Counted from the stretch's first letter, positions 1 through 25,874 are shown. The stretch: DNA of 64,000 nucleotides from an uncultured virus (IMG/VR IMGVR_UViG_3300042503_002084) (IMGVR_UViG_3300042503_002084), one strand, 5' to 3'. The notes: generated by a model not told the origin, from the sequence alone. Translations and numbers: made by a program.

Positions 1-663
1 AGAGGTATTGAAGGTGGAACAATTGAGATTGCGGAAAAATATGGTTGGGCGCCTGCAATCTACCATGAAATTTATAACCTATTGGATTATTATAAACGAG
101 GAGAAAAAGCAATACACGACGGAGACACTGTCGTTGAACTTGGTGGTAACATTGGCGTTTTCAATAGATGGGCATACAACCAAGGAGCGTCTAGGGTTAT
201 TTCATTTGAGCCAGATAAAAGATACTTTAAATTATTGTCATTGAATGCTGATCCTCGTTCAGTGTTATTTAATGCCGCTGGTAGTGATTCTATTGGTTCA
301 TTAACATTATATGAAAGCGAACACTTAGGTGGATCAAATTTATTTGGAACCCAAGAAGGCGCTAAGACGTATACCACTAGAACATATACTTTAGATTACT
401 TATTTGAAACTAAGTTAGTTGATAAAATTGATTTCTTAAAAGTCGATATTGAAGGTGCGGAGCATTATGCGTTCGCTGGGATATCAGATGAAAATTTAAG
501 TAAGGTTAAAAATATTGCAATGGAATATCACCATTCTCATTTTAACTATGATGACGATCTTAGAAACAGTTTAGTAAATAGAATGGTTAACAATGGTTTT
601 AAACCTTACATTCTTTTTATGGGATATAATAACGCATTACAAATGATATATTTTACAAGATGA
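1..663 (+). CDS. FkbM-family SAM-dependent methyltransferase (5' truncated by window edge)
   Basis: Frame is open from base 1. Motifs VVELGGNIG, ISFEP, IDFLKVDIEGAE and MEYH are typical of FkbM/Methyltransf_21. Confidence 0.85.
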   Translation, partial: RGIEGGTIEIAEKYGWAPAIYHEIYNLLDYYKRGEKAIHDGDTVVELGGNIGVFNRWAYNQGASRVISFEPDKRYFKLLSLNADPRSVLFNAAGSDSIGSLTLYESEHLGGSNLFGTQEGAKTYTTRTYTLDYLFETKLVDKIDFLKVDIEGAEHYAFAGISDENLSKVKNIAMEYHHSHFNYDDDLRNSLVNRMVNNGFKPYILFMGYNNALQMIYFTR

Positions 664-1316
664 GCACATTAGATATTTTAGCAAAATCGTATGGTACTGA
701 TAAATGTTCTGAAACACACAATTATTGTGTTAAGTATGAAAAATATTTACCATTTAATAGATGGGACGATTTAAAAATTTTAGAGATAGGTGTATTGGAT
801 GGTAAATCTCTTTTAACATGGAGAGATTATTATTATCGTTCACACATAACCGGTATCGATATTAATCCAGATTGTAAAAAATATAGTGGTGAAAGAATTT
901 CTGTTGAGATTGGTTCACAAGCCGACAATGTTTTCTTAAATGAAATCATGAGGGAGTATGGAAAATTTGATATGATACTAGATGATGGTTCCCATATGAA
1001 TTCACATATGATTTATTCTTTTGAGCATTTATTTGAATCAGTTAAATCTGGTGGTGTTTATGTAATTGAAGATGTTGGTTGTTCATATTGGGAAGATTAT
1101 GAAGGAGGTTATTTAAAACCAACATCTTGTATGGAATATTTTAAAGCATTGTCTGATGATATAAATTTCAGAGGACTAATGAACCATAACAAACCAAACG
1201 TACATGCAAGAAGAGAAGATTGGTTAATCGAGAACTCTGTAAGTATGCCAACGTGTAGAACGGATATCGAATCAATAAACTTCCTTAATGGAATTATTAT
1301 TATAACCAAGAGATAA
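660..1316 (+). CDS. Class I SAM-dependent (sugar O-)methyltransferase
   Basis: GTDK..HNY, ILEIGV, GIDI, GSQAD, DDGSH, GGVYVIED motifs (MycE/Methyltransf_24-like). Overlaps the upstream stop (ATGA). Confidence 0.85.
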   Translation: MSTLDILAKSYGTDKCSETHNYCVKYEKYLPFNRWDDLKILEIGVLDGKSLLTWRDYYYRSHITGIDINPDCKKYSGERISVEIGSQADNVFLNEIMREYGKFDMILDDGSHMNSHMIYSFEHLFESVKSGGVYVIEDVGCSYWEDYEGGYLKPTSCMEYFKALSDDINFRGLMNHNKPNVHARREDWLIENSVSMPTCRTDIESINFLNGIIIITKR

Positions 1317-4012
1317 TGGCTCACACAAATCAAATTTTATATTGTGAGTCGGTAAAAGCAAAGTACCCGCAATTTTTTAAAGGGGTTAAAGTTTTAGACA
1401 TCGGGTCATTAGATATCAATGGCTCAAATCGTTATCTTTTCGAGGATAGCGATTATTTAGGTATTGATGTTGGTGAGGGGCGTAATGTTGATTTAGTTTG
1501 CGTTGGTCACGAATTTAATGGTCCTGATAACTATTTCGATACCATCATATCAACTGAAGTTTTTGAACATGACATGTACTATGAAAAAACAATTCTTAAT
1601 GTCATGAGAATGTTAAAACCTGGTGGATTGTTTGTGTTTACTTGTGCGTCTACAGGAAGAGCGGAGCATGGAACAAGAAGAAGTGATGGTAGTTGGGCAG
1701 CACCATTACTAATGAATAAAGATGCGTGGGCGGATTATTATAAAAATTTAACTTCAGAAGACATTGAAGTTATTGATGGATTTAAAGAACATTTCCCCGA
1801 TGGGGTTTTCGGTTACAACGGTGAAAGTTGCGATTTATATTTCTCAGGAATAAAAAGTGATGTTGAAAGTTTTAAAAAAAAATATATGATTTTTAATGAT
1901 GATGTTTTTATTATCGATTGCTGGTTGGATACAAAAGAAAAAGAAGATACTTTAATAAATTTAATTAACAGAGTTAAAGTTTTCAATGTTCCAATTATAT
2001 TATGTGGACATTATCCGGTTAAACCGGAAATACAAAAGATGGTTGACTATTGTATCTATGACAAGAATAACGATATTTTATTAGAGAAGGACTTTAACCA
2101 ATATGATGTTGCTAGTGACAGATGGACAGAGATGGGCGACTACAGAGTTGTGAACAAAGTTAACTTTCACCATGATTACGCTATTTGGTTAACCATGAAA
2201 AATAGTTTTAACCTTGCAAATCAACTAGGAAAAAAATATATACATTTCTTAGAGTTTGATAATTTACCGGAAGAAACACAATATAGACAAGCATTCTTAG
2301 AGTATATAAGAAGTTTTGACGCTGTTGTGCAAGAATATGACGAAGGTTCAACAAAAACAGATGCACCATATTGTGCAACTTATATTTTTTCAATAAGAAC
2401 TGATATTGCTTTACGTGTCATTGAACAAATAAAAACAAAAGAAGAGTTTTTTAGAAACAGACCTAATGGTTGGCAGTTAGAAAAAGTGTTTTTACAAACA
2501 TTAAAAAATGTTACAAACAGCATATACGTTAGTAAGTACATGCCAAACGATGATGAGTTAAACATATTTGCTGCGTGGAATAGAAACGGGATATTAAGAA
2601 ATGGTGCTAGATTCCAGACGTATTTAGCCGTAGATAATCAGAATAAATTATATGCTCATTTTATATCCGGGTTTGATAACAAACCAGCAGATAAAGATTA
2701 TTTAATTGAAATTCATTATAATGGTAGAGGTAAGTTCTATATGGTAAATAAAAATATGTACCACCTAGAAGGGTTAGGTGAATTTATTCAAGGAGAAACA
2801 GTTAGAATTTATTACCAAGGGGTTGAGGTCTTTAGTGAACTATTAAAAGACAATGTTAACGAGTTTAAAAGAAAAAACCAACTCACTTGGAAAAATAAGA
2901 ACACAAACAGAAGAGTCAACGTAAACTTTGTCGATGGTCCCTTTGTTGAGATATTAGAAGATGTTGAAAATTTATACAATGTTAAATTTATTAATCAAGA
3001 TAATAATAAAATTGAGTTTGAGTTAAATTTAAAAAGTAATCACTGGGCTAGAACCGGTAAAAAGTATTTCGTTAACTGGTTAATTAAGATTCAAGGTATT
3101 GATAACGATTTTTATCATGAGCATGTATTTGATCCAGCAGGTAAAAGGTTTCTAGTGGCATTTGAATCAAAATCATTGGGTGACAATTTGGCTTGGATGG
3201 ATTATGTAGACAAATTTAGGTTAGATAAAAAATGTGAGGTCATTTGTTCTACTTTTAATAATGATTTATTTAAATCACAATATCCTAATATTGAATTCGT
3301 TAACCCTGGGGCGTTGGTTTCTAATTTATATGGCTTATTCAGGATCGGTTTATTTTACAAAACCGATGACAATGGTGTTAGAGGGGTAAATTATGAAAAC
3401 CATAAAACAGACCCTAAAAAAGAACCATTAGGAAAAGTAGCGTCAGATATTCTAGGTTTAACATATAATGAATCTAGAACTAAATTACCTAGAATTGGTA
3501 AGAATAAGCAAAAAAGAGTTTGTATTGCTATTCATTCGACAGCACAATGTAAGTATTGGAATAACCCAACTGGTTGGCAAGATGTTGTTGATTATTTAAA
3601 ATCAAAAGGTTATGAGGTTAGATTATTATCAAGAGAAGAAAACGGATATATGGGGAATTGGAACCCAAAAGGTGTTGTTCAACAAAAACCAAGTTCAACA
3701 GTAGAACTTATTAAAGTTTTACAAGAGTCAGAATTTTTTATTGGGATTAGTAGTGGACTTAGTTGGTTAGCGTGGGCTTCAGGTATTCCAGTTGTTTTAA
3801 TCTCAGGTTTTACCGATGTATCATTAGAACCGTTTGATAATGTGAAAAGAATTATCAACAAAGATGTTTGTAATAGTTGCTGGTCAAATTATGATTTTGA
3901 TGCAGGCGATTGGAATTGGTGCCCAGTCCAAAAGGGTACAGATAAACAATTTGAGTGTTCAAAATCAATTACAAGTGAAAATGTTATCAAAGAACTTGAG
4001 TTAATGATGTAA
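1316..4012 (+). CDS. Multidomain protein: methyltransferase + uncharacterised middle domain + Aah/TibC-like autotransporter O-heptosyltransferase
   Basis: N-term LDIGSLDING / ISTEVFEH / LKPGG. C-term SKSLGDNLAW, QCKYWNNPTGW, FFIGISSGLSWLAW, VVLISGFT and the four-Cys CNSCW...WNWCP...FECSKSI motif of the Aah/TibC family. Confidence 0.85.
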   Translation: MAHTNQILYCESVKAKYPQFFKGVKVLDIGSLDINGSNRYLFEDSDYLGIDVGEGRNVDLVCVGHEFNGPDNYFDTIISTEVFEHDMYYEKTILNVMRMLKPGGLFVFTCASTGRAEHGTRRSDGSWAAPLLMNKDAWADYYKNLTSEDIEVIDGFKEHFPDGVFGYNGESCDLYFSGIKSDVESFKKKYMIFNDDVFIIDCWLDTKEKEDTLINLINRVKVFNVPIILCGHYPVKPEIQKMVDYCIYDKNNDILLEKDFNQYDVASDRWTEMGDYRVVNKVNFHHDYAIWLTMKNSFNLANQLGKKYIHFLEFDNLPEETQYRQAFLEYIRSFDAVVQEYDEGSTKTDAPYCATYIFSIRTDIALRVIEQIKTKEEFFRNRPNGWQLEKVFLQTLKNVTNSIYVSKYMPNDDELNIFAAWNRNGILRNGARFQTYLAVDNQNKLYAHFISGFDNKPADKDYLIEIHYNGRGKFYMVNKNMYHLEGLGEFIQGETVRIYYQGVEVFSELLKDNVNEFKRKNQLTWKNKNTNRRVNVNFVDGPFVEILEDVENLYNVKFINQDNNKIEFELNLKSNHWARTGKKYFVNWLIKIQGIDNDFYHEHVFDPAGKRFLVAFESKSLGDNLAWMDYVDKFRLDKKCEVICSTFNNDLFKSQYPNIEFVNPGALVSNLYGLFRIGLFYKTDDNGVRGVNYENHKTDPKKEPLGKVASDILGLTYNESRTKLPRIGKNKQKRVCIAIHSTAQCKYWNNPTGWQDVVDYLKSKGYEVRLLSREENGYMGNWNPKGVVQQKPSSTVELIKVLQESEFFIGISSGLSWLAWASGIPVVLISGFTDVSLEPFDNVKRIINKDVCNSCWSNYDFDAGDWNWCPVQKGTDKQFECSKSITSENVIKELELMM

Positions 4013-4051
4013 AAGGGGTCATTTTTATTTCACTATAACTATTTACTGTGG

Positions 4052-4059
4052 TATTTATA
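4052..4059 (+). promoter_or_regulatory. TATTTATA motif, candidate phage late promoter, upstream of the tail fibre gene
   Basis: Same motif recurs just upstream of several other genes (41388, 51978, 60587, 61897; minus strand 44972, 32213, 28901). Confidence 0.5.
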
Positions 4060-4075
4060 GTAAAATAGAAAATTA

Positions 4076-7000
4076 ATGGAAATAATTGGTTCACTATCCA
4101 GTGTTTCGGGCTCGTTATCCGCTTCATTTTTTACCGGTTCATTCGTTGGTGATGGTAGTAGATTAACTGGTATTCCGATGAACGCGTTTTCCGGTTTTAC
4201 AGTTAGCCAGTTAAATGCTGGCGCCGCAACCGCCTCAATATCTGCAACAGATGGTTTTGTTGTAAATACAAAAACAAATATACAAGGTAATTTAGTTGTT
4301 ACCGGTTCAATAACCGCAACACAATATATAATCAGTTCATCTGTTATATATGCAACTGAATCGTACACGAGCGGGTCCCACAACTTTGGTAACTCTAGTG
4401 ACGATTTCCATAATTTTACTGGTAGTGTTAATATTAGTGGTTCATTAGTACTTAATGGAACATCATTTACTGCTGCAACTTCTGGTACATCAGGCACAAG
4501 CGGTACTTCGGGTACCTCTGGTAGTTCTGGTACTAGAGGTACATCAGGAACTTCGGGTACCTCTGGTAGTTCTGGTAGTTCTGGAACATCAGGTTCAAGT
4601 GGTACTTCGGGATCAAGTGGTTCGTCAGGAACAAGTGGATCAAGCGGAACTAGTGGTAGTTCTGGTTCTAGTGGAACATCGGGTTCTTCCGGAACTAGCG
4701 GAACCTCAGGTTCAAGCGGGTCTTCAGGTACATCAGGTTCTAGTGGAACGTCGGGTAGTTCTGGTTCTTCAGGAACATCAGGATCAAGTGGCTCTTCTGG
4801 TACATCTGGTTCATCAGGTTCCAGTGGTACAAGTGGCACATCAGGATCAAGTGGTACGAGCGGAACCTCAGGTTCTTCAGGATCATCTGGTACATCGGGT
4901 TCATCAGGTTCATCAGGAACGTCAGGATCTTCGGGTTCTTCTGGTACTAGAGGTACGTCTGGAACTAGTGGTACTTCGGGTTCATCAGGTTCATCAGGAA
5001 CAAGTGGATCTTCTGGGTCATCAGGAACTGCGGGAACGTCAGGTTCAAGTGGTAGTTCTGGTTCTAGTGGAACATCGGGTTCTTCTGGATCTTCTGGTAC
5101 AAGTGGCACATCTGGTTCTTCCGGAACTAGCGGTACTAGTGGTAGTTCAGGGTCCTCTGGTTCTACCGGTACATCAGGTACTTCAGGTTCTTCTGGTTCT
5201 AGTGGAACCGCAGGTTCTTCTGGTTCATCAGGAACGTCAGGTACATCAGGTTCAAGCGGTACCGCCGGTACATCAGGTTCAAGTGGCTCAAGTGGTACAT
5301 CGGGTTCTTCTGGTTCATCAGGATCTAGTGGTACGTCAGGAACTTCCGGTACGAGTGGTTCATCAGGTTCATCAGGAACAAGTGGTTCATCAGGTTCATC
5401 AGGAACAAGTGGAGCATTAACATTAAGTGGCACTCAAGATAATGGATTATTAACCTTAAATGGTAGTGCACCAAACGCAACAGTTGAAAGTAATTTAAGA
5501 TTTGACGGCTCGTTACTAACGGTTGTCGGTAATGAAACAATATCTGGTTCGTTAATTGTAACCCAAAATTTTACTGTTTTAGGGTCATCATCAATCCAAA
5601 ACATTAGTTCTTCTAATTTAGTTATTGGGACATCAATCGTAACTTTAAACACATTCTCACCATCATCTAGATATGCCGGTTTGAATATCATAGACAGTGG
5701 TTCAATTGGCGGTTCTGGTTCATTCTTATATGATGCCTTACAAGATGAATTTATATTTGTTCACAGAGGAAACGGTGTAAACGTAACGTCGTCCCATTTT
5801 ATAATGGGACCAGAAACTTACGATAACTTAGGAAACGAAACATATATCACCAGTAATCGTATCCCGAAAGGAAAGGGTAATGAACATCTTAATGATTCAA
5901 ATATAACTGATACTGGTACTGTAGTATCGATAAATTCAAATACAGAAATAACTGGCTCATTAAAAGTAACGAATGGTGTTTATGTAACAGGTTCGTTATT
6001 TATTAATGGTACATCATATACCGCAGCAACTTCAGGAACCAGTGGTACATCAGGTACATCAGGTACTAGTGGCAGTTCTGGATCAAGTGGTACGTCAGGA
6101 TCTTCGGGTTCTTCTGGTACTAGAGGTACTTCAGGAACTAGTGGTACATCTGGTAGTTCTGGTTCAAGCGGAACGTCAGGTTCTAATGGTTCAAGCGGTA
6201 CATCAGGTACATCAGGATCTTCGGGTTCTTCAGGTACTAGCGGTAGTTCAGGTTCTAGCGGAACATCTGGTTCTTCTGGTTCATCAGGTACGTCAGGTTC
6301 ATCAGGTACTTCTGGGTCTTCCGGATCGTCAGGAACCTCAGGTTCAAGTGGATCGTCAGGAACAGCAGGTACATCAGGTTCTTCAGGGTCTAGTGGGTCT
6401 TCTGGAACAAGTGGATCTTCTGGTAGTTCAGGTTCATCAGGTACTTCTGGTTCAAGTGGTAGTTCAGGAACCGCTGGAACATCAGGAACAAGTGGAACTT
6501 CAGGTAGTTCTGGTTCTTCAGGAGTAACGGGTGGAGTAAGATACAATTTCTCAACCTCAACAACAGATGCTGACCCAGGCGCAGGATTAGTTGCTTATAA
6601 TAGTGGAACAATTGGTTCGGTGTCATTCATTTATATTGATAACGTTGATCAGTTAAGTAACACGCAAACCGCTTGGTTTAATACTTGGTCAACATCAACA
6701 AACACAACAAATAGAGGAACTGTAACACTTTTTAGTAGAGATTCTGGAACAATTGTCAATATTTTTACAGTTACGGGCGCAGTAACTGCTGCGTCAGGAT
6801 ATTTTAAAATCCCAGTATCTTATGTAAGTGGTACTCTAGGTGCAAATAACGCACAACTTGCGATTGAATTCGCTAGAACAGGTAATGCTGGTTCTTCCGG
6901 ATCTTCTGGTACTAGTGGTACTTCAGGTACATCTGGAACAAGTGGTAGTTCAGGATCAAGTGGAACTGCTGGTACATCAGGTTCTTCAGGGTCTAGTGGA

Positions 7001-9301
7001 TCTTCTGGAACAAGTGGTAGTTCAGGGTCAAGTGGCACCTCAGGTTCTAACGGGTCGTCAGGAACGTCTGGCACATCAGGTAGTTCAGGATCTTCTGGAA
7101 CTTCAGGATCTAGTGGTTCGAGTGGTACAACCGGAACAAGTGGAACTGCGGGTACGTCAGGATCTAGTGGCTCAAGCGGAACTTCAGGATCAAGTGGTTC
7201 ATCTGGAACTAGAGGTACGTCAGGAACAAGTGGAACCTCAGGATCAAGTGGATCTTCTGGTTCATCTGGAACCTCAGGGTCTAGTGGATCTTCTGGTTCT
7301 ACCGGTACATCCGGTACTGCAGGTACATCGGGTTCTTCAGGTTCTTCTGGATCTAGCGGGACCTCGGGTTCAAGTGGTAGTTCAGGTACTTCTGGTACTT
7401 CAGTAACCATTTCAGGGGTTAACAATACTGTCGCAAAATACACATCATCAACTACTATTGGTAATTCTAATATTACGGATGATGGAACAACGATTAGGTT
7501 GGCTTCTAACTCAATTGTAACAGGTTCATTAACCGTTACAGGAAACTTAATAGCACAACAATTTATTGTTAGTTCATCGGTTAGTTACGTAACCACATCA
7601 TTCGCATCTGGTTCATCTAGGTTTGGTGATAGTATTGATGATACACATCAGTTTACTGGTTCAGTATTAGTAACAGGTTCATTTAGATTACCTACCGCAA
7701 GTTCTACAGGTAATATTACAGGTAATGCGGCAGGTCAATTATTCTATAACACAACTGACACAAACATATACAGATACAATGGTACAACATGGTTAAGTAA
7801 TGCTGGTACATCTGGAACAAGTGGTACTTCAGGAACAAGTGGATCAAGTGGCACATCAGGATCAAACGGATCTAGTGGGACGTCTGGCACATCTGGATCT
7901 TCAGGATCAAGTGGTACATCTGGTAGTTCTGGTTCATCTGGAACCTCAGGTTCTAATGGTTCAAGTGGCACATCTGGTAGTTCTGGTTCAAGTGGGTCAA
8001 GTGGTACATCAGGGTCAAGTGGTACATCTGGTACAAGTGGATCTTCTGGTTCATCTGGAACCTCAGGGTCTAGTGGATCTTCTGGTTCTACCGGTACATC
8101 CGGTACTGCAGGTACATCGGGTTCATCAGGATCTAGTGGTACTAGTGGTTCATCAGGATCAAGCGGAACAAGCGGGTCTAACGGTTCCTCAGGTACTAGC
8201 GGGACATCTGGTTCTTCTGGATCTTCTGGTACTTCAGGTAGTTCAGGATCAAGTGGTACTAGAGGTACGTCAGGAACAAGTGGAACTTCAGGATCTAGTG
8301 GTTCAAGTGGTACGTCAGGATCAAGTGGTTCATCTGGAACAAGTGGTGGTACAGGTTCACCGGGTTCTAACGGTAGTTCAGGATCTAGTGGAACATCGGG
8401 TTCTTCAGGTTCTTCTGGATCTAGCGGGACCTCGGGTTCAAGTGGTAGTTCAGGATCTAGTGGAACATCGGGTTCAAGTGGTAGTTCAGGATCTAGTGGA
8501 ACATCGGGTTCTTCAGGGACTAGAGGTACATCAGGAACTTCTGGTACAAGTGGATCTTCTGGATCAAGCGGCACATCGGGTAGTTCGGGTAGTTCAGGTA
8601 CATCAGGAGCAAATGGTTCTCCAGGATCTAACGGATCATCAGGGTCTAGTGGATCATCAGGTTCGTCAGGTACATCAGGTGCAAATGGTTCACCAGGATC
8701 TAACGGATCATCAGGAAGTTCTGGTAGTTCTGGTTCGTCAGGTACATCAGGTGCAAATGGTTCACCAGGATCTAACGGATCATCAGGAAGTTCTGGTAGT
8801 TCTGGTTCGTCAGGTACAACAACAATTACAAACGCTAGTGATGATAGAGTAATGACAAGCACAGGTGGTGTTGGATTAAACGCCGAAGCAAACTTAACGT
8901 TTAATGGATCAACACTTGCTGTTACTGGTGCAATAACAACAACCGGTAACGTAACCGTTGGTGGTGTCTTAACAGAAAACTCATCATTACGATATAAGAA
9001 AGATGTTGAAACTCTTAAATATGGTTTAGAGATACTCTTACAATTAAGAGGTGTTAGGTATGTTAGAAAAGATAATGGAATAACTGAGATTGGAGTTATC
9101 GCGGAAGAAATGGAAGAAATTTTACCAGAGATAGTTTTGAAAAATGATGAAGGTCAAGTTGATTCGGTTTCATATGGTAGATTGTCGGCAATATTCATTG
9201 AAGCGATAAAAGAATTGAAACACGAATTAATGGAACAAAACCATGTTATTAACGAGCAGAACTTGATTATTAACGAATTAAAACGTAAATTAGATCTATA
9301 A
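4076..9301 (+). CDS. Long tail fibre/adhesin with four Gly-X-Ser (GSS/GTS) repeat blocks and a C-terminal Peptidase_S74 intramolecular chaperone
   Basis: 1741 aa. C-terminal SSLRYKKDVETL...GVIAEE...VSYGRL..IFIEAIKEL plus coiled coil is the S74 signature. Beta-rich TGS linker domains lie between the repeat blocks. Confidence 0.85.
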   Translation: MEIIGSLSSVSGSLSASFFTGSFVGDGSRLTGIPMNAFSGFTVSQLNAGAATASISATDGFVVNTKTNIQGNLVVTGSITATQYIISSSVIYATESYTSGSHNFGNSSDDFHNFTGSVNISGSLVLNGTSFTAATSGTSGTSGTSGTSGSSGTRGTSGTSGTSGSSGSSGTSGSSGTSGSSGSSGTSGSSGTSGSSGSSGTSGSSGTSGTSGSSGSSGTSGSSGTSGSSGSSGTSGSSGSSGTSGSSGSSGTSGTSGSSGTSGTSGSSGSSGTSGSSGSSGTSGSSGSSGTRGTSGTSGTSGSSGSSGTSGSSGSSGTAGTSGSSGSSGSSGTSGSSGSSGTSGTSGSSGTSGTSGSSGSSGSTGTSGTSGSSGSSGTAGSSGSSGTSGTSGSSGTAGTSGSSGSSGTSGSSGSSGSSGTSGTSGTSGSSGSSGTSGSSGSSGTSGALTLSGTQDNGLLTLNGSAPNATVESNLRFDGSLLTVVGNETISGSLIVTQNFTVLGSSSIQNISSSNLVIGTSIVTLNTFSPSSRYAGLNIIDSGSIGGSGSFLYDALQDEFIFVHRGNGVNVTSSHFIMGPETYDNLGNETYITSNRIPKGKGNEHLNDSNITDTGTVVSINSNTEITGSLKVTNGVYVTGSLFINGTSYTAATSGTSGTSGTSGTSGSSGSSGTSGSSGSSGTRGTSGTSGTSGSSGSSGTSGSNGSSGTSGTSGSSGSSGTSGSSGSSGTSGSSGSSGTSGSSGTSGSSGSSGTSGSSGSSGTAGTSGSSGSSGSSGTSGSSGSSGSSGTSGSSGSSGTAGTSGTSGTSGSSGSSGVTGGVRYNFSTSTTDADPGAGLVAYNSGTIGSVSFIYIDNVDQLSNTQTAWFNTWSTSTNTTNRGTVTLFSRDSGTIVNIFTVTGAVTAASGYFKIPVSYVSGTLGANNAQLAIEFARTGNAGSSGSSGTSGTSGTSGTSGSSGSSGTAGTSGSSGSSGSSGTSGSSGSSGTSGSNGSSGTSGTSGSSGSSGTSGSSGSSGTTGTSGTAGTSGSSGSSGTSGSSGSSGTRGTSGTSGTSGSSGSSGSSGTSGSSGSSGSTGTSGTAGTSGSSGSSGSSGTSGSSGSSGTSGTSVTISGVNNTVAKYTSSTTIGNSNITDDGTTIRLASNSIVTGSLTVTGNLIAQQFIVSSSVSYVTTSFASGSSRFGDSIDDTHQFTGSVLVTGSFRLPTASSTGNITGNAAGQLFYNTTDTNIYRYNGTTWLSNAGTSGTSGTSGTSGSSGTSGSNGSSGTSGTSGSSGSSGTSGSSGSSGTSGSNGSSGTSGSSGSSGSSGTSGSSGTSGTSGSSGSSGTSGSSGSSGSTGTSGTAGTSGSSGSSGTSGSSGSSGTSGSNGSSGTSGTSGSSGSSGTSGSSGSSGTRGTSGTSGTSGSSGSSGTSGSSGSSGTSGGTGSPGSNGSSGSSGTSGSSGSSGSSGTSGSSGSSGSSGTSGSSGSSGSSGTSGSSGTRGTSGTSGTSGSSGSSGTSGSSGSSGTSGANGSPGSNGSSGSSGSSGSSGTSGANGSPGSNGSSGSSGSSGSSGTSGANGSPGSNGSSGSSGSSGSSGTTTITNASDDRVMTSTGGVGLNAEANLTFNGSTLAVTGAITTTGNVTVGGVLTENSSLRYKKDVETLKYGLEILLQLRGVRYVRKDNGITEIGVIAEEMEEILPEIVLKNDEGQVDSVSYGRLSAIFIEAIKELKHELMEQNHVINEQNLIINELKRKLDL
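4478..5413 (+). repeat. Coding Gly-X-Ser triplet repeat block 1 (approximate bounds)
   Basis: Continuous GSS/GTS triplets with heavily varied codons. Confidence 0.95.
6029..6523 (+). repeat. Coding Gly-X-Ser triplet repeat block 2 (approximate bounds)
   Basis: Same triplet pattern as block 1. Confidence 0.95.
6889..7402 (+). repeat. Coding Gly-X-Ser triplet repeat block 3 (approximate bounds)
   Basis: Same triplet pattern. Shares an ~85-90 bp exact DNA copy with block 4 (~7250-7335 vs ~8040-8124). Confidence 0.95.
7805..8817 (+). repeat. Coding Gly-X-Ser repeat block 4, ending in 72-bp tandem units (GTSGANGSPGSNGSSGSSGSSGSS)
   Basis: GGTTCGTCAGGTACA recurs at 8660, 8732 and 8804 (72-bp period). 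Confidence 0.95.
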
Positions 9302-10287
9302 TGCAAGTTAACGGAGATGTAAATTTTACTGGTACCCTTTCAATTCAAGGTAGAGACGTAAAACAATACCTTGATAATCACTATGAACTAGGTTTAGTTT
9401 TAATTAGAGGACTTATTGGTGGTGGGTATATTGGTAGTACAATATATGACACAATCACAACATTAAAATATTCAACTGATGCCTGGGCAACAAGTTCAGC
9501 AACATTAACTCAGGCAGTAAAATATGGTGGTTGGGCATCTGCTCACACCGCTGGATATGTTTTCTTAAATCAACAAGATAATCGTACTGGTAACAATAAA
9601 GTTGTGTTTGCATCTGAAACTGTTACAACAATTGGTGCCAGAGGTTATTCTGGTACCTCACCCTCATCAATACAACATGGTGTTGGTTATGAAACAACCG
9701 GAGTTCCTTTTGGGACTAAAGCATATACTTTAGGTACCGAATCTACTGGTTATGATAAATTAACATTCTCAACAGACACATTTGCATCAGCAACAGATGC
9801 GAACATTCCAACCAACTATCACTCTGTTGGTTGGTTTGATAAAGAATATGGATATCACTATGCTGGTGCAACAAATAGAACTGCAATTTATCCATTCGCA
9901 ACAGAAAGTTGGGGTACATTATCAACAACAAATACACCAGTTGGATTTGGTTTTCCCCAAGTATATTTAGAAAAAGGATTAAACACAAAAAAAGGTAAAT
10001 TTTATTTAGCAGGTAGCGCTTCTTGGTATAATAATACATTATTCCAATTTAGAAATAACATAACGACTTGGTCAGTTAATTATGGAAGCCAAACACTACC
10101 AAACTGTGAAACAGCCGGAACTATGGGGCAAAACCATGGTTATTTGGCTGGAGGTTATCAATCAAACATTGCGGGCGGACAAAACGCTCACTCAGACAAG
10201 ATTTATCACGATACAGATTCTGTTGTTAACATTGCAGACGCACCTAGACCATTATCATCTGGTTCACCAATGTGGAGTTCAATATAA
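9301..10287 (+). CDS. Putative tail-associated beta-propeller-like protein, paralog 1
   Basis: Shares GGGYI, QHGVGY, WFDK, KGLNTK, GYxAGGY and DAPRxLS..PMWS with the next two ORFs. Kelch-like GG motifs. Confidence 0.6.
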   Translation: MQVNGDVNFTGTLSIQGRDVKQYLDNHYELGLVLIRGLIGGGYIGSTIYDTITTLKYSTDAWATSSATLTQAVKYGGWASAHTAGYVFLNQQDNRTGNNKVVFASETVTTIGARGYSGTSPSSIQHGVGYETTGVPFGTKAYTLGTESTGYDKLTFSTDTFASATDANIPTNYHSVGWFDKEYGYHYAGATNRTAIYPFATESWGTLSTTNTPVGFGFPQVYLEKGLNTKKGKFYLAGSASWYNNTLFQFRNNITTWSVNYGSQTLPNCETAGTMGQNHGYLAGGYQSNIAGGQNAHSDKIYHDTDSVVNIADAPRPLSSGSPMWSSI

Positions 10288-10293
10288 AATGTT

Positions 10294-11256
10294 ATGATAA
10301 TAAATGGTGGATTAAATTTTACGGGAACAATGAAGTACAATGGTTCACAATTGAACCTTGAGTACATTGCAGATGATTATAGAAACGGATTAACATTAAC
10401 TAAAGGATATATTGGTGGTGGTTATATTAGTAACGCTGGCTGGACTGTCGTAACAACAATACAAAATTCAACAGATACTTGGGGAACTTCAGCAAACGCA
10501 GCATTAGGTACCCCACATAGATATGGTGCAACCTTTTCATCACATATAAATGGTTATATTTTGTACGGTGATGGTTCATATAGAATAAATAAAAAAATGG
10601 CCTTTAGCACCGAGTCAGTAACTGATATCGCAAATCGTTCATATGGTAATTATCCTTGTTCCATACAGCATGGTGTTGGATATAATAGTGATGGCACATT
10701 TTATGGAACTAGAGGGTATACATTAGCAAATAGTTCTAGTAACTATGAAAAATTTACATTTCCATCAGACACATTTACAACAGCATCCGATGGAAACATA
10801 TACACTGGTGATCAATCATATTGTGAATCTTGGTTTGATAAACATTACGGATGGTCTCTTGCTAACGATGGCGTAACTAGAAGATACACATTTTCAAGTG
10901 AAACTTGGGCGACAAGATCACCATCACCAAACTACACACAAACATTATCATATTGGGGTAAAGGTTTATCAACAAAAGACGCAAAATCATATGTTCACGC
11001 CGGTGGAATTGCTTTTCCTTTTATGAAATTCATGCACTTAACTGAATCATATGTTACAAATCCATATGCCCAAACATTAGACAATGACGAACAATCACCA
11101 GTTATGGGGCAGAGTCATGGTTATTGGGCTGGCGGATATAACGGTGCTCAGAATGCACACACTGATAGAGTAGAATCCAATACGGATACTGTGATAAAAA
11201 TATTAGATGCACCAAGAGCGTTAAGCGCTGGAGCAGCAATGTGGAGTGGGTATTAA
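10294..11256 (+). CDS. Putative tail-associated beta-propeller-like protein, paralog 2
   Basis: Same motif series as 9301-10287. Confidence 0.6.
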   Translation: MIINGGLNFTGTMKYNGSQLNLEYIADDYRNGLTLTKGYIGGGYISNAGWTVVTTIQNSTDTWGTSANAALGTPHRYGATFSSHINGYILYGDGSYRINKKMAFSTESVTDIANRSYGNYPCSIQHGVGYNSDGTFYGTRGYTLANSSSNYEKFTFPSDTFTTASDGNIYTGDQSYCESWFDKHYGWSLANDGVTRRYTFSSETWATRSPSPNYTQTLSYWGKGLSTKDAKSYVHAGGIAFPFMKFMHLTESYVTNPYAQTLDNDEQSPVMGQSHGYWAGGYNGAQNAHTDRVESNTDTVIKILDAPRALSAGAAMWSGY

Positions 11257-11266
11257 TTAATAATAT

Positions 11267-12886
11267 ATGATAGTAAACAGTAACATAGAGATTAGGGATA
11301 GGGTATACGGTTGGAGACAACCATCAACTTATCACATTAGAGGTACTGTATCTGGAACGAACAATTCAATATTTAGTTCTGGTAGTGGTTATACTGCAGT
11401 TGTATACAACTACACATTCGCCCCAGGAGAGGCGTTTATTGTTATAGCGTATTGGGCACACAATTACAGAGGTACTGGGTTTGTTTATGGACCAAACGTT
11501 AAACACACAGATTTTGATGGTTATTCGGCAGATGGTTATGGACCATACTGTGGCGCATTAAACACTTCCGGGTTTCCAAATGGATATAGCGCAACATTTT
11601 TTGGACAATACCACGCACCATTAGCAAGTGGTGGTGCCGCAACAACCGGGTATTGGTTTAAATGGCAAAGATCGTCAAACACATTATCTTTACAATATTC
11701 AACAGAAGGACCAAGTGGTCCGTGGACAAACTTTAACAGTGCAGGATCAACAACAATTGCGTCAACTGATGCTGTTTGTATTGTTGTTGGAGAAGCCGGA
11801 GACACTGAGGTATCACCATTAAGGTTAGAGTCGACACCAGCCAATATATACCACAATAGTAGAGCCGTATTTGCATATACGGAAGATTATTATAGATTTT
11901 CTTTAAATTTAATTAAAGGTTTTGCTGGCGGTGGGTACATCGGAAGTACACACTATTCTAGTATTGTTCAAATAGCATATGCAACTGACGCATGGTCAAC
12001 CACACCTTACGGATTAAGTTATACTACTTGGTATGGTACCGGTTTTAGTGGATTAAGTAATGGTTATGTAAATTTTACTGGAGGTAATAACTTTGCAACA
12101 GATAGATTTAACTTCCCAACACAAACTATTCAAGCAATGGCCGCTAGAACCTATAGTAGTAACGGTTCCCCATCGGCAACTCAACAAGGGGTTGGTTATC
12201 TACCTGTTTATAATCAAATATCAACATCACCAACAGCACCTGCAGGTGCTGGAAATTCAGCAGCAAGTACATACAATACTTTAGCATCATATGGTACAAA
12301 AGGATATGAAGTTGGCAAACAAACAACTAACTGGGAAGCATTAACGTTTTCAACTGAAGCGTGGCAAGCAAAAACTAGTGGACCATCTGGTGGATATGGT
12401 ATGGGTTGGTTTGATAAAGATTATAGTTGGCAATATGCTAGTGCGTATGGTGGTAATAATACTGTAACAAATAGAATGCCCCATTCAACTGAAACTTGGT
12501 CAAGTATAACAACAACAAGTAGTCCTGGTGCTTTAGGTATGCCATCTGGTGGCGCCGAAAAGGGTGTTAACTCCAAACAAGGTAAGTTTTATTTGGCTGG
12601 GAATTGGGGTGGTACTTATTGTGGTACTAGTGATGGTAATAGAATATTTAAGTTTGTTAATGCAACATCTACATGGACAGTAAATAGTAGTTCACAAACT
12701 AGATGGAACAACGAACATTGTGGTCTTATGGGTATGAATACGGGATATTTTGCTGGAGGATATAACTGCACTGATGGACAAAATGGACATACTGATAAAA
12801 TTAATTATAATTTAGATTCAATAGTTCAAATAGCAGATGCACCAAGATCGTTATCATCGGCATCACCAATGTGGTCATCCTATTGA
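11267..12886 (+). CDS. Putative tail-associated beta-propeller-like protein, paralog 3, with an extra N-terminal beta domain
   Basis: Same motif series, preceded by ~200 extra aa rich in aromatic residues and beta-strand pattern. Confidence 0.6.
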   Translation: MIVNSNIEIRDRVYGWRQPSTYHIRGTVSGTNNSIFSSGSGYTAVVYNYTFAPGEAFIVIAYWAHNYRGTGFVYGPNVKHTDFDGYSADGYGPYCGALNTSGFPNGYSATFFGQYHAPLASGGAATTGYWFKWQRSSNTLSLQYSTEGPSGPWTNFNSAGSTTIASTDAVCIVVGEAGDTEVSPLRLESTPANIYHNSRAVFAYTEDYYRFSLNLIKGFAGGGYIGSTHYSSIVQIAYATDAWSTTPYGLSYTTWYGTGFSGLSNGYVNFTGGNNFATDRFNFPTQTIQAMAARTYSSNGSPSATQQGVGYLPVYNQISTSPTAPAGAGNSAASTYNTLASYGTKGYEVGKQTTNWEALTFSTEAWQAKTSGPSGGYGMGWFDKDYSWQYASAYGGNNTVTNRMPHSTETWSSITTTSSPGALGMPSGGAEKGVNSKQGKFYLAGNWGGTYCGTSDGNRIFKFVNATSTWTVNSSSQTRWNNEHCGLMGMNTGYFAGGYNCTDGQNGHTDKINYNLDSIVQIADAPRSLSSASPMWSSY

Positions 12887-12925
12887 TTTATTGAAAAAAA
12901 TTATGTATATTAACAAAAAACAAAT

Positions 12926-13579
12926 ATGAAAGAAGATATTTTACCAAAAGAGTATAAAGATTTAATTTTCTCAATGTCAGAGTTTCAAATTAAACATTTT
13001 GTTATTGGATCGCAACACAATCCGTATAGACAATTTAAACAAATCCTATTAGAACTAGAAGTTAGAAATACCAATATGGAACAGATGGTTTTAGATATGG
13101 AGAAAAATCGATTAGAAAGAAATTTAGCAGAAGAAAAAATGGGATCAGAATCGTCACCAGCACAGAAAGCACTTTATCAACACGATATAAAGAAATTAGA
13201 TATTACCCATGAAAATGGTTTAAGAGCAATGGAAAGAACTAAATCTGAAATGGGGTTTCTTGAAAATATTTTAACAGAATTTAGAGCAGAATTTAATGTT
13301 GCGGAATTAATGGATAAACAAGATGAGTATGAACATGAATATTGGATAAAACGTTTAGCAACACAATCAGCATTAGAATTATTAACATCCGGCAGAATTG
13401 GTGTAGGTAATATGGAAGCGTTAATGCAAATGGGTTCAGATAATTTTAGAAAAGCACTTGTTGAAACAACTAGAATAACTAATCAAGTAAAAGAACAAGT
13501 GAAATATTTAGATATGATAGGAGATGATGAACTTCTTCAAAATAATGGGTCTAAAGAAATTGAATTTAAAGAGCAATAA
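12926..13579 (+). CDS. Hypothetical coiled-coil protein in the tail module
   Basis: 217-aa ORF, helical and charged, co-oriented with neighbours. Confidence 0.7.
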   Translation: MKEDILPKEYKDLIFSMSEFQIKHFVIGSQHNPYRQFKQILLELEVRNTNMEQMVLDMEKNRLERNLAEEKMGSESSPAQKALYQHDIKKLDITHENGLRAMERTKSEMGFLENILTEFRAEFNVAELMDKQDEYEHEYWIKRLATQSALELLTSGRIGVGNMEALMQMGSDNFRKALVETTRITNQVKEQVKYLDMIGDDELLQNNGSKEIEFKEQ

Positions 13580-13581
13580 AA

Positions 13582-14319
13582 ATGGATTACATAGCGTATA
13601 GAATACCACAAGGGGAAGGTCACCCAAACATAAGCGGAATTGAACAACTTAGATATGCAGAGAATTACTACATATGCTCTGTTATTGATATTAATTTAAT
13701 CTCAACCGGAATTATTCAAAAATACGGAATTGTTAAAGCAAACGAACAAGTTGTTAGAGGTTTAGAATTTTTTGTTGCAACCAGTGAGAGCGCAAAAATT
13801 TATAAAATATATTCTAGTGGACAAGCGCCGGAATTTTTTGATGAAGATTTCAATGTAGTTAATGGTGTTAGGATTAAAAGACCAATGGCTGATAATGAAG
13901 TTGTAGATAGATATGAAGCAATTCGTTGGGTGAGAAAACAAATGGTTAAAGATTATTATAAACAAAAATTTGAAACCTTAACTATAAATAAAACACCACA
14001 AGAAAGAGCAACGTGGCAAGCACAATTAAATGAAGCCGTTCAAATAGAAAATGGTGACACAACACCAACCCCTACGATAGATTTGCTATCAGCGGCTAAA
14101 GGCGTTAGTAGAACCGCATTGGCTAGTGGAATCATTTCTGCTAATGAAAGTTATAAACTACAAGTCGCACAATTATTTGCTGACGAAGAAACATACGTAA
14201 CACAATTAAATAACGCTTCTGGAGATGATATAATCAACGTTAGATTACCAGTATCAACAACAATTATACCTGGAGACACCAGATTTGGTGGTCAAACGGT
14301 AACAATATCAGGAGAGTAA
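13582..14319 (+). CDS. Hypothetical protein, possibly a tail fibre assembly chaperone
   Basis: ERATWQAQLNEA...TPTIDLLSAAKG resembles motifs in phage tail-assembly proteins. Position in the tail module. Confidence 0.5.
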   Translation: MDYIAYRIPQGEGHPNISGIEQLRYAENYYICSVIDINLISTGIIQKYGIVKANEQVVRGLEFFVATSESAKIYKIYSSGQAPEFFDEDFNVVNGVRIKRPMADNEVVDRYEAIRWVRKQMVKDYYKQKFETLTINKTPQERATWQAQLNEAVQIENGDTTPTPTIDLLSAAKGVSRTALASGIISANESYKLQVAQLFADEETYVTQLNNASGDDIINVRLPVSTTIIPGDTRFGGQTVTISGE

Positions 14320-14329
14320 AACCAAAATT

Positions 14330-15847
14330 ATGGAAATTAAAAAGATTGTCATTCTTGGCGGAGGAACCGCTGGAATAATGACTGCTGCATTATTATCAAA
14401 AGTATTTAAAAATAAATTAGATATTACTCTAATTCATTCTAACAAAATTGGAACCATAGGTGTTGGTGAAAGTTCAACTGCTAGTTTACATTCATTCATG
14501 AAGTACATTGGTTTACAAGAAAAAGATTGGATGGAAGAATCGTCCGCGACATATAAGTATGGTGGTAGATTTATGAATTGGTCATCAAGTGGTGATCATT
14601 TCGTTTTAGTGGAAGACGATGTAAAATTATTCGTTAATCAAAATACAAACTTATTACAACATATTGTATCTGAATATAAAAACGATCCACATAAGTTAAA
14701 AGAATTATTCATTACACCTAAATTAGCGTTAAACAATTTAACACCAAAGATAGACGATGATCAATTATATTCAGCAGTGTTTGATGAAATTGGTAGTGTC
14801 TATAGTTACAACTTTGATGCAATTAAATTTGCTGATGTTATTAAAAGAAAAGTTTGTATCCCTAATGGTGTTAAATTTGTGGAGGGGCAACTTAAACAAG
14901 TTAAATTAGATGATTTTGGTTTTATTAAAGATATAAAACTATGGGACCAACAAAAGTTTAAAGCGGATTTGTATATTGATTGTTCAGGATTCAAGGGGGC
15001 TTTAATTGAGTCAGTAATGAATGAACCATTTATTCCATTTAGTGATTCTTTGTTCTGCGATAAAGCAATTGCCGCACCAATCCCATACAAAGACAAAAAA
15101 ACTGAGATGGAACCATATTCTAGAATGTACACAATGACTAGTGGTTGGTTATGGAAAACACCAATCTATGATAGAATAGGTTCTGGTTATGTTTATTCAT
15201 CAAAACATATAAGTGATGAGGATGCTGAAAAAGAATTTAGGGAGTTTCATAATGGGTATGATGGTAAGGTGTTGAAAATCAATATGCGTGTTGGGACAAG
15301 AGAAAGAGTTGCAGTTAAAAATGTTGTTGCTTGTGGATTGTCAGGCGGATTCGCTGAACCAATGGAAGCGACAGGTATCTCAACATTCCAAGGTATTATG
15401 GTTACACTAGCAACAGAGTTAGAAAAATCAAATTTAAATTATACAACACAAACAATGGATGAAATCAATCGAGATAATATTGACATGATGATTGATATCA
15501 GAGATTTTATACAAGCACACTATCTTCTTTGTGAAAGAAACGACACCCCTTTCTGGAATGATGTACACACAAAATCATTTGTTCCAGACACACTAAATCA
15601 AAAACTTCACGTAATGTCAATTAAACCACCAGATAAATTATTTAGAGGTAGAATATTTGGAGCGGTTAACTGGTTTCAGTGGTTGTGGGCCATGGGCTTT
15701 TATAAAAACAATGGTTATAAATTAGATCCTAAGTACAAAGACATGTGTGAACATAAAGTGAATCTAATAAAAGAAGAATCGAATTCACTATCTAAAATTC
15801 TACCTAACCACTACGAATATTTAAAGAAGTTTTACGGGAGAGAATAG
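14330..15847 (+). CDS. Tryptophan halogenase-like flavoprotein
   Basis: IVILGGGTAG, IGVGES, ATYKYG, YIDCSGF, GWLWKTP (WxWxIP variant), RIGSGYVYSS, FAEPMEATG. Confidence 0.88.
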   Translation: MEIKKIVILGGGTAGIMTAALLSKVFKNKLDITLIHSNKIGTIGVGESSTASLHSFMKYIGLQEKDWMEESSATYKYGGRFMNWSSSGDHFVLVEDDVKLFVNQNTNLLQHIVSEYKNDPHKLKELFITPKLALNNLTPKIDDDQLYSAVFDEIGSVYSYNFDAIKFADVIKRKVCIPNGVKFVEGQLKQVKLDDFGFIKDIKLWDQQKFKADLYIDCSGFKGALIESVMNEPFIPFSDSLFCDKAIAAPIPYKDKKTEMEPYSRMYTMTSGWLWKTPIYDRIGSGYVYSSKHISDEDAEKEFREFHNGYDGKVLKINMRVGTRERVAVKNVVACGLSGGFAEPMEATGISTFQGIMVTLATELEKSNLNYTTQTMDEINRDNIDMMIDIRDFIQAHYLLCERNDTPFWNDVHTKSFVPDTLNQKLHVMSIKPPDKLFRGRIFGAVNWFQWLWAMGFYKNNGYKLDPKYKDMCEHKVNLIKEESNSLSKILPNHYEYLKKFYGRE

Positions 15848-15894
15848 TTTGTTTTACGATATTTTTTTTGTATATTAGTACAAACAAATTTATT

Positions 15895-16104
15895 ATGAAA
15901 CTATTCAATATTGGAGATGCGTCTCCTTCAGCAAGAATGACATTTTTATCAATCGGAGCAGTTGTCTTTATAGGTAACTGCTTGACTGGTTTAAGCGAGG
16001 TGAGTTGGGTGTTGTGGCTACCCCCAACTTTATTACCATTAGCCGCGTTAACCGGGGTTTGTCCTTTTAAAATTATTTGGGAGAAACTCGGATTTAAAAA
16101 ATAA
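15895..16104 (+). CDS. Small two-TM membrane protein (DUF2892/YgaP-like)
   Basis: Two hydrophobic segments and a TGVCP motif. ATG at 15895 follows a TATATTAG promoter-like element. Confidence 0.55.
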   Translation: MKLFNIGDASPSARMTFLSIGAVVFIGNCLTGLSEVSWVLWLPPTLLPLAALTGVCPFKIIWEKLGFKK

Positions 16105-16109
16105 CAAAG

Positions 16110-20767: not shown

Positions 20768-20777
20768 TATCTATTGT

Positions 20778-21386: not shown

Positions 21387-21389
21387 AGA

Positions 21390-22711: not shown

Positions 22712-22712
22712 A

Positions 22713-23897: not shown

Positions 23898-23949
23898 TTA
23901 CTATTTTATTTACTACAATTTAATTATTTTTTTTTATATTTTAAAGGTT

Positions 23950-24546: not shown

Positions 24547-24548
24547 GT

Positions 24549-25873: not shown

Positions 25874-25874
25874 T

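Follow-up and report, generated by a model that had tools for sequence, protein, structure and literature searches.

The first 14 kb of a 64,000-nucleotide stretch from an uncultured virus (IMGVR_UViG_3300042503_002084; "the window" denotes this whole stretch) form a single, tightly packed block of plus-strand genes, in which a fusion enzyme ending in a TibC/Aah-type O-heptosyltransferase-like domain directly precedes a long collagen-like tail fibre. We propose that this cassette O-glycosylates Ser and Thr residues of the fibre, with ADP-heptose as the most likely donor and perhaps with stabilisation of the triple helix as a result, a reading that we regard as probable while leaving real room for others. 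It starts from four observations: the family to which the enzyme belongs, its catalytic residues, the composition of the fibre and the recurrent linkage of the two genes. An earlier note, made from the sequence alone, had suggested that the phage keeps the enzyme-beside-substrate layout of Aah and TibC and glycosylates its own fibre; profile searches, structural models and locus comparisons support this suggestion. Both open reading frames (ORFs) that it named, the enzyme at 1316-4012 and the fibre as the next gene, are present on the plus strand (Table 1).

Searches with phmmer aligned residues 539-890 of the fusion enzyme with residues 29-379 of the 406-residue TibC from the Protein Data Bank (PDB entry 4rap; E = 1.2e-55). 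The model TIGR04414 ("autotransporter strand-loop-strand O-heptosyltransferase") matched over positions 10-371 of 374 with 282.1 bits (E = 6.4e-84), above its curated equivalog cut-off of 200 bits. By comparison, models of lipopolysaccharide (LPS) heptosyltransferases scored weakly (RfaQ, E = 7e-6, 25 bits vs 467; heptosyltransferase I, E = 4e-4, 19.7 bits vs 185.3), and Pfam GT9 reached 21.6 bits, just under its cut-off of 22. An AlphaFold (AF2) model of the domain, built from 17 homologues (pLDDT 86.6, pTM 0.86), retrieved TibC as the first Foldseek match (E = 6e-33, TM-score 0.85), as against E = 1.4e-8 and a TM-score of 0.53 for WaaC. The model superposed on 4rap with TM-scores of 0.85/0.80 over 370-385 aligned columns and also matched 4rb4, indicating that it reproduces the whole architecture of a TibC protomer, with beta-barrel, GT-B core, thumb and four-Cys iron finger. 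Identity to TibC/Aah enzymes was 32-39%, the plasmid-borne Aah-type enzymes encoded beside AIDA-I standing at 38.7%. As judged from profiles and predicted fold, the C-terminal part of the enzyme is a true TibC/Aah (BAHT) relative, as the earlier note had supposed, and not a generic GT9/WaaC-type transferase; the note had placed the domain correctly and underestimated its extent, residues ~532-894 amounting to roughly 40% of the protein instead of its C-terminal third.

The functional residues of TibC have been described (PMC4358343): Asp-110 is the catalytic base, Thr-226, Lys-230, Arg-286 and Trp-305 contact the sugar, Cys-339/342/358/370 bind iron, Phe-265/Val-266 form the tip of the thumb, Pro-300 is the stereoselectivity residue and corresponds to Ser-294 in AAH, which takes both heptose epimers, and Arg-286 contacts N1 of adenine, its Ala mutant being inactive. 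By alignment, the window equivalents are D623 for the base, T742, K746, L798 and W817 for the sugar contacts, C852/855/869/881 for the iron ligands, Y778/M779 for the thumb tip and S812 for Pro-300. The four hallmark motifs listed in the earlier note are all there (SLGD at residues 620-623, KYWNNPTGW at 746-754, IGISSGLSWLAW at 808-819 and the cysteines C852/C855/C869/C881), and they align with D110, K230, W305 and the iron-binding Cys of TibC. Over 59 distinct viral homologues, window included, the equivalents of the catalytic Asp, Lys-230 and Trp-305 were kept in 59/59 each, that of Thr-226 in 58/59 and each of the four Cys of the predicted iron site in 58/59. Pro did not occur at the position of Pro-300, which is Ser in 33 and Gly in 26 of the enzymes, S812 matching the AAH residue. 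The thumb tip is more variable, with Tyr in 32/59 and Met in 35/59 at the two equivalent positions and polar residues in other clades. The adenine-contacting Arg is the sole sugar-contact or catalytic feature of TibC that is absent from the window domain, a point to which we return below.

The neighbouring protein contains 569 Ser and 248 Thr in its 1741 residues and ends in a Peptidase_S74 chaperone (E = 3e-10), in line with the "several hundred Ser/Thr residues" claimed for it. Its GSS/GTS repeats are as previously noted; what had been overlooked is that they are collagen Gly-X-Y repeats. There are 329 such triplets, grouped into five runs that are 52-104 triplets long (nt 4484-5419, 6035-6529, 6881-7402 and 7805-8821) and separated by non-collagen domains. 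Position X is occupied by Ser (180) or Thr (143) and position Y by Ser in 290 of the 329 triplets. Lys, Asp and Glu are absent from the 987 residues of the runs, in which Pro occurs 4 times and Arg 6 times. Collagen helices are generally stabilised by Lys-Asp/Glu salt bridges, and a Gly-Pro-Thr peptide is triple-helical only when its Thr is glycosylated (PMC11923368). The usual stabilisers, Pro/hydroxyproline or such salt bridges, are thus missing from the fibre runs, which makes a structural role for a glycan plausible. The repeat DNA is only 67-93% alike and uses mixed codons, and the Gly-X-Y pattern is therefore maintained at the protein level; the tail-fibre PHROG matches of the protein are driven mainly by these repeats. 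No other ORF of the window has Gly-X-Y runs, and none of the window ORFs scanned matched the Pfam Autotransporter beta-domain, the place of an autotransporter beside the enzyme being taken by this collagen-like S74 fibre.

Megablast of the enzyme gene against 50,697 phage records gave no match, tblastn covered the TibC part in just 4 phage records, and a PHROG search assigned the TibC-like and middle parts to no family. Viral contigs yielded 131 relatives of the TibC-like part, of which we took the best 80 loci with 8-kb flanks and scored as a Gly-X-Y ORF any frame having at least 45 residues in runs of at least 6 triplets (Ser/Thr type when at least 75% of X/Y positions are Ser or Thr). The linkage of homologues to Ser-rich fibre genes, which the earlier note had named as a check, was borne out: a Gly-X-Y ORF occurred at 42/80 loci, and one of the Ser/Thr type at 38/80, compared to 0/80 control loci (centred on homologues of thymidylate synthase in comparable large phages, at equal total length). 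When the 59 distinct enzymes were considered, the fibre lay within 2.5 kb in 27, within 8 kb in 2 and was not found in 18, the flank being too short in the remaining 12. Linked rows fall in three separated viral clades with 40-70% identity. In the window clade, the fibre usually starts 48-86 nt past the enzyme gene on the same strand. A group with 47% identity is also paired (L027 and L032, and L040, in which alone the fibre genes are on the opposite strand), as is a group with 40-43% identity (L060-L078) in which the enzyme is a different, GT4-GT2-TibC fusion.

The search was also run from the fibre side. A degenerate DNA pattern for GSSGTSGSSGTSG retrieved 73 loci on 58 contigs, and a TibC-like ORF lay within 10 kb at 13 of these loci, on 11/58 contigs. 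Owing to the length of many fibre genes, a 10-kb flank often stays inside the gene: the giant Ser/Thr Gly-X-Y ORFs (L258 at 295-16242 on the minus strand, L310, L302 and L296) reach 5,316 codons, 3,411 residues falling in collagen-type runs. When 9 further records were searched whole, a TibC-like gene was found elsewhere in 5, among them the two with a completeness of at least 90%. Five records, 170-336 kb long and either related or fibre-bearing, all had the T4-type capsid gene Gp23, and the source of the window is best explained as a large T4-like phage.

The pair is also carried by the cultured Microcystis phage Mel-JY01 (PP395634.1, L001). Its 1226-residue fusion of GT4, middle and TibC-like domains, at 4750-8430, is annotated "methyltransferase FkbM", and a 1016-residue open frame at 2-3049 on the plus strand, 1.7 kb upstream, has 606 residues in Gly-x-x runs with 79% Ser/Thr at X/Y. 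This frame emerged from a relaxed pattern with Gly at every third position and a six-frame scan, the strict Ser/Thr-only six-triplet DNA pattern having no match in Mel-JY01. The deposited annotation has minus-strand hypothetical coding sequences at 1-651 and 739-2298 there; the collagen-like gene seems to have been mis-annotated and divided by the start of the record.

Profile searches of bacterial and archaeal genome contigs returned more than 607 relatives. Among the best 80 of these cellular loci, 13 lie beside Ser/Thr Gly-X-Y ORFs, all of them among the most virus-like, and the Gly-X-Y proteins of the paired bacterial contigs are small. We scanned 55 downstream neighbours of at least 300 residues of cellular TibC-like genes for domains and found an autotransporter beta-domain in 3, AIDA repeats in 2, a second TibC-like gene in 11, a terminal GH9 domain in 7, Hint_2 in 2 and collagen in 1. 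In Lentisphaeria/Victivallales metagenome-assembled genomes (MAGs), the TibC-like gene is followed by a protein of ~1,200 residues ending in a GH9 domain; in Acetobacteraceae it is followed by a Hint_2-domain protein, and Selenomonadales-type genomes have tandem TibC-like pairs (the GH9 and Hint_2 set comprises L219, L222, L226, L231, L241, L245 and L250, and L193 and L207). The TibC family therefore seems to have types of acceptor beyond autotransporters.

A quick FastTree phylogeny of 139 rows splits, with a support of 100, into two groups. One has 57 rows, all cellular, and takes in every one of the six autotransporter-linked enzymes, the Aah anchor next to AIDA-I among them; the other has 82 rows and takes in all 59 viral enzymes and all 13 Gly-X-Y-linked cellular ones. 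Because the branches are long and the tree is midpoint-rooted, only this split is read from it, and not a direction of transfer. The closest cellular match, with 58% identity, comes from a 238-kb contig of a Pseudobdellovibrionaceae MAG (L173; JBIIER010000003.1); it has a 100% Ser/Thr Gly-X-Y ORF 0.9 kb away and falls inside the viral clade of the window. This contig is possibly that of a phage, placed in the bacterial MAG by binning.

The TibC-like domain is one part of a larger set. The methyltransferases claimed by the earlier note, one fused to the enzyme and others upstream, were recovered (Table 1); it had overlooked a further transferase domain between the fused methyltransferase and the TibC-like domain. 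Residues 182-540 match no Pfam family at a meaningful E-value, as checked in 23 homologues. An AF2 model from these 23 (pLDDT 84, pTM 0.79) has a GT-A/nucleotide-diphospho-sugar-transferase fold over ~240 residues, followed by a beta-sandwich. VIA-align gave Z-scores of 13-15 equally to GT-A glycosyltransferases and to nucleotidyltransferases; the best Foldseek matches were GlcAT-P, alpha-1,3-galactosyltransferase and the collagen galactosyltransferase COLGALT1 (E ~1e-5). D244 and D315 are invariant among the 23 aligned homologues, and the Gly-rich loop of nucleotidyltransferases is not visible in the sequence of this domain. From its modelled fold, the middle domain is probably a second glycosyltransferase.

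These domains are shuffled among relatives. The first methyltransferase domain has a gene of its own upstream in L035/L036, whereas it is part of the fusion in L002, L020, L021, L025 and L028; the middle domain is fused after the TibC-like domain in L044 and L051 and encoded just upstream of it in L050, L057, L064 and L067. Further relatives join the TibC-like domain to GT4, GT2, FkbM and additional methyltransferase domains, the order of which varies. The window edge truncates the gene at 1..663, whose full-length counterparts in relatives encode ~914 residues with a GT4 glycosyltransferase and an FkbM domain, as in L025 (2945-5686; Glycos_transf_1 plus FkbM), where the Methyltransf_24 gene also occupies the same position. 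The three packed genes thus hold at least three methyltransferase and three glycosyltransferase domains (GT4-FkbM; Methyltransf_24; methyltransferase/GT-A/TibC-like). Since the domains occur in varying arrangements and the upstream gene is of the GT4 + FkbM type, the cassette is a set of glycan-building and glycan-methylating modules and not a lone enzyme.

What we infer from this is the acceptor, the sugar and the role of the glycan. With Asp623 as base, the TibC-like domain would attach the sugar of a nucleotide donor, most likely ADP-heptose, to hydroxyl groups of Ser and Thr, and the acceptor would be the Ser/Thr residues of the Gly-Ser/Thr-Ser triplets in the fibre whose gene starts 64 nt downstream. 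Lengthening of the glycan would then fall to the GT-A and GT4 domains, and its O-methylation to the three methyltransferases. As the repeats have neither proline nor Lys-Asp/Glu salt bridges, the glycan probably stabilises the triple helix and would coat the fibre; shielding or adhesion are also possible. A bolder version, which we consider doubtful, is that a proline-free, charge-free (Gly-Ser/Thr-Ser)n chain needs glycosylation along its length by a ring-shaped TibC-like enzyme in order to fold or to stay folded, the two forming an obligate module in which glycans replace both hydroxyproline and salt bridges. In this version the module, a sister branch to the heptosyltransferases of adhesins, would have spread among T4-like phages and also into bacteria.

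At a distance of 42 kb from the cassette, the window encodes a homologue of ADP-glycero-manno-heptose 6-epimerase that may help to make the donor sugar. TIGR02197 is its best NCBIfam match over the full model (E = 3.8e-54; next GalE, E = 3e-13), with a score below the equivalog cut-off (184 bits vs 274.6). Its product is 58% identical to an epimerase of a related 335,630-bp record rated complete (G001), whose gene adjoins those for a kinase (best match rfaE domain I, E = 1.5e-37) and an adenylyltransferase (rfaE domain II, E = 6.2e-27). In that locus (L163, 51028-54822), the minus-strand ORFs 1492-2301, 2304-3068, 3046-3465 and 3441-3734 encode the epimerase-, kinase- and adenylyltransferase-like proteins and a 97-residue cupin; as no GmhA was found in G001, one could speculate that this cupin before the heptose genes is the missing isomerase. 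A run of eleven sugar-related genes lies on the minus strand of the window at 18822-28489 (Table 1), and these genes could make or attach a further sugar, amino or methylated. Judging from gene content and conserved residues, we put heptose as the donor sugar at about even odds.

Several results weigh against our reading. The equivalent of Arg-286 is Leu798 in the window, and among the 59 viral enzymes it is Arg in 26 and Val, Ile or Leu in 30, including the whole window clade; with this replacement the nucleotide may not be ADP, the alignment having indels just ahead of the site. GmhA was not found in four related records (GmhB was not searched for), a heptose kinase/adenylyltransferase pair occurred in only one of the four and has no counterpart in the 64-kb window, and every heptose-gene match lies below its equivalog cut-off. 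TibC recognises a folded beta-helix, and such an enzyme may or may not act on Gly-X-Y chains. Regarding linkage, a Gly-X-Y ORF was absent by our criterion in 18 of the 47 rows with enough flank, including a whole clade of 16 rows. Much of the linkage is inherited synteny, with few independent events (about three viral clades plus the bacterial groups). We nevertheless rejected shared ancestry as the whole explanation of the pairing, since separate clades show it with different fusions, spacing and strand, and bacteria have it as well.

The replacement of the adenine-contacting Arg by Leu, Val or Ile throughout the window clade would fit a fibre that is glycosylated by way of a sugar or nucleotide other than ADP-heptose, for instance one supplied by the genes at 18.8-28.5 kb. 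So would the absence of GmhA from the four relatives searched, the occurrence of the kinase/adenylyltransferase pair in just one of them, and the SDR dehydratase/epimerase, PseC-like aminotransferase and six further glycosyltransferase-like genes of the window. We consider such a donor unlikely, given that the heptose-O4 contact Trp-305 and the beta-phosphate contacts Thr-226/Lys-230 are invariant or nearly so, that the domain passes the TIGR04414 cut-off and that the HldD-like gene is orthologous to the epimerase within the heptose-activation trio of G001. In pelagimyophages, rfaE and the glycosyltransferases of the hypervariable region around the tail fibre have been read as modifiers of the host O-chain (PMC7029224), and the window carries many other sugar genes. 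The window enzymes could likewise alter the host surface (LPS/O-chain or a host protein) against superinfection, their proximity to the fibre being that of any gene in a hypervariable host-recognition region. This seems quite improbable to us: the domain belongs to a family that O-glycosylates proteins and scores poorly against LPS heptosyltransferases, and its partner is one type of protein that is lacking at the control loci of similar phages. Moreover, the pairing survives changes in fusion, gene order and strand, and occurs in bacterial contigs with small Gly-X-Y proteins.

An enzyme acting mainly on other virion or phage proteins (the Ser/Thr-rich proteins downstream, capsid or tail) and not on the collagen-like repeats is, in our estimate, less probable still. 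Three ORFs with 21-23% Ser/Thr do follow the fibre gene, at 9301-12886. Several members of the 16-row clade without Gly-X-Y ORFs have the enzyme 2 kb from proteins with 30-34% Ser/Thr, one of which has a sub-threshold Collagen match, and bacterial relatives adjoin varied large proteins (GH9, Hint_2, autotransporters). Set against this, the Gly-X-Y fibre is the strongest and most repeated neighbour, usually less than 90 nt away, and 20-30% Ser/Thr is ordinary among fibre proteins.

Dodecamer assembly and ADP-heptose (D,D or L,D) as donor are features of the TibC/Aah family. The window domain belongs with TibC-TibA and Aah-AIDA-I (BAHT; PDB 4RAP/4RB4) by sequence and fold, and shares with TibC/Aah the catalytic Asp, the Thr/Lys/Trp sugar contacts and the four-Cys iron finger. 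It differs from them in its fusion to a methyltransferase and a GT-A-fold domain and in the Leu at position 286, and the acceptor of TibC/Aah is an autotransporter beta-helix, whereas the neighbour here is a collagen-like Gly-X-Y phage fibre; across the deep split of the tree, the viral and Gly-X-Y-linked enzymes stand apart from the autotransporter-linked TibC/Aah. WaaC, WaaF and WaaQ (GT9) have the GT-B superfamily fold in common with the window domain and use ADP-heptose, but they lack the beta-barrel, thumb and iron finger, and their acceptor is lipid A-Kdo and not a protein. Glycosylated collagen-like fibres occur elsewhere: BclA has proline-rich repeats, and its glycosyltransferases are not known to be TibC-like; it is a spore surface protein, unlike the phage fibre of the window. 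In the exosporium of the Bacillus cereus group, BclA is a collagen-like Gly-X-Thr fibre with short O-glycans on its collagen region (PMC12357932). The TibC/Aah loci have the same layout as the window, the enzyme gene coming directly before one that encodes a surface fibre which is long, repetitive and rich in Ser (PMC4358343), as also seen in the Aah/AIDA-I plasmid locus. In Riftia cuticle collagen and the Gly-Pro-Thr(Gal) peptide, O-glycosylation replaces hydroxyproline as the stabiliser of the helix (PMC11923368). The former is an animal protein and the latter a model peptide, with Pro at X and galactose as the sugar, whereas X and Y in the window fibre are Ser/Thr.

Virion glycosylation itself has a precedent in mycobacteriophages, which carry glycans on the C-termini of capsid and tail-tube subunits (Freeman et al. 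2023, cited in PMC12619734). There, phage enzymes glycosylate the phage's own structural proteins, as we propose here, and the citing passage in PMC12619734 mentions neither a TibC-type enzyme nor a collagen-like fibre. We found no publication joining heptosyltransferase, collagen-like and phage, no title on TibC-like enzymes in the literature on phage collagen-like tail-fibre glycosylation or virion glycosylation, and, going by titles and abstract openings, no work on phage enzymes among the papers naming TibC, phage and heptosyltransferase. What appears to be new here, going by sequence comparison, is a BAHT-type enzyme with a new class of acceptor and new fusions.

The genes of the block are closely spaced. 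The stop codon of the gene at 1..663 overlaps the start of the next ORF (ATGA), whose own stop overlaps the start of the fusion enzyme (TAATG); the fibre gene begins 64 nt after the enzyme gene and its stop overlaps the next start. We rejected a T4-type late promoter before the fibre gene: the window had 9 matches against 13.5 expected, and none on the plus strand in the 64-nt gap. The G+C content of the window is 32%.

Table 1. Predicted features of the glycosylation cassette, the fibre and the other sugar-related genes of the window (short-chain dehydrogenase/reductase, SDR; S-adenosylmethionine, SAM).
Feature	Coordinates	Strand	Basis
FkbM-type methyltransferase domain (C-terminal)	1..663	+	Pfam Methyltransf_21 E 4e-16; TIGR01444 E 2.1e-21
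Class I SAM methyltransferase (Methyltransf_24 / O-methyltransferase-like), 218 aa	660..1316	+	PF13578 E 9.9e-6; phrog_21658 E 3.2e-30
Fusion enzyme, 898 aa	1316-4012	+	three enzyme domains + linker
Enzyme domain 1, SAM-dependent methyltransferase, residues 1-181	1316..1858	+	phrog_32762 E 1.7e-52; Pfam Methyltransf_11 E 2.9e-6
Enzyme domain 2, GT-A / nucleotide-diphospho-sugar-transferase fold, residues ~190-432	1883..2611	+	AF2 model, Foldseek
Beta-sandwich linker domain, residues ~433-525	2612..2890	+	AF2 secondary structure: eight strands at segment 252-344
Enzyme domain 3, TibC/Aah-type O-glycosyl(heptosyl)transferase, residues 532-894	2909..3997	+	4rap, TIGR04414, AF2 model
Collagen-like tail fibre, 1741 aa	4076..9301	+	Pfam Collagen E 3.6e-132; phrog_5073 E 1.4e-135
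Peptidase_S74 intramolecular chaperone, fibre C-terminus, residues 1636-1688	8981..9139	+	PF13884 E 3e-10, 40.7 bits vs cut-off 22
GT2, SDR epimerase/dehydratase, two Methyltransf_24, DegT/PseC-like aminotransferase (E 1.6e-59), GT2-like, TOD1/MUCI70-like transferase, GT2, two GT4	18822-28489	-	
HldD-like SDR (ADP-glycero-manno-heptose 6-epimerase-like), 278 aa	45900..46736	+	TIGR02197

Other genes of the window were noted in passing. An ORF resembling aspartyl/asparaginyl beta-hydroxylases, which are protein-modifying oxygenases, lies on the plus strand at 17938-18543, a few kb from the fibre block (Pfam E = 1.4e-9), and a full-length tryptophan halogenase homologue at 14330-15847 (+; Pfam E = 1e-105, phrog_2928 E = 2.1e-104). 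Two genes follow directly on the HldD-like gene, at 46729-47528 (+), one for a cREC_REC cyclic-phosphate-processing receiver protein (E = 1e-21), the other for a 4Fe-4S ferredoxin of small size (E = 9.4e-15). A counter-defence gene at 58125-58775 (+) encodes a member of the Tad3 family of type I Thoeris inhibitors (Pfam E = 9.5e-25). Further genes that are unusual in a phage are DUF6580 (29694-30236), a cobalamin adenosyltransferase (31552-32076, E = 4.7e-55), a DnaA C-terminal-domain-like ORF (51565-51960, E = 5.6e-17), an ArdC-like protein (51989-53434) and an FG-GAP repeat protein with a weak TcdB_toxin_midN match (54349-55629).

The O-heptosylation of proteins by TibC/Aah has so far been known solely from a few Gram-negative pathogens, in which autotransporters are its targets and it counts as a virulence trait. 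If our reading is true, a new chemistry would join the short list of phage virion glycosylation systems, and the existence of proline-free Ser/Thr collagens, some of them thousands of residues long, would be explained. Glycosyltransferases in the tail-fibre regions of marine and freshwater T4-like phages, which are now seen as modifiers of the host surface or of phage DNA, would have to be reread. The cassette would also provide a compact enzyme-plus-acceptor pair for glycosylated collagen-like materials. Since Mel-JY01 is cultured and carries the pair, the idea is directly testable. For the family as a whole, the TibC-type enzyme appears to have a second and probably much larger class of substrates, namely the collagen-like fibres of large aquatic phages and the small Gly-X-Y proteins of some bacteria.

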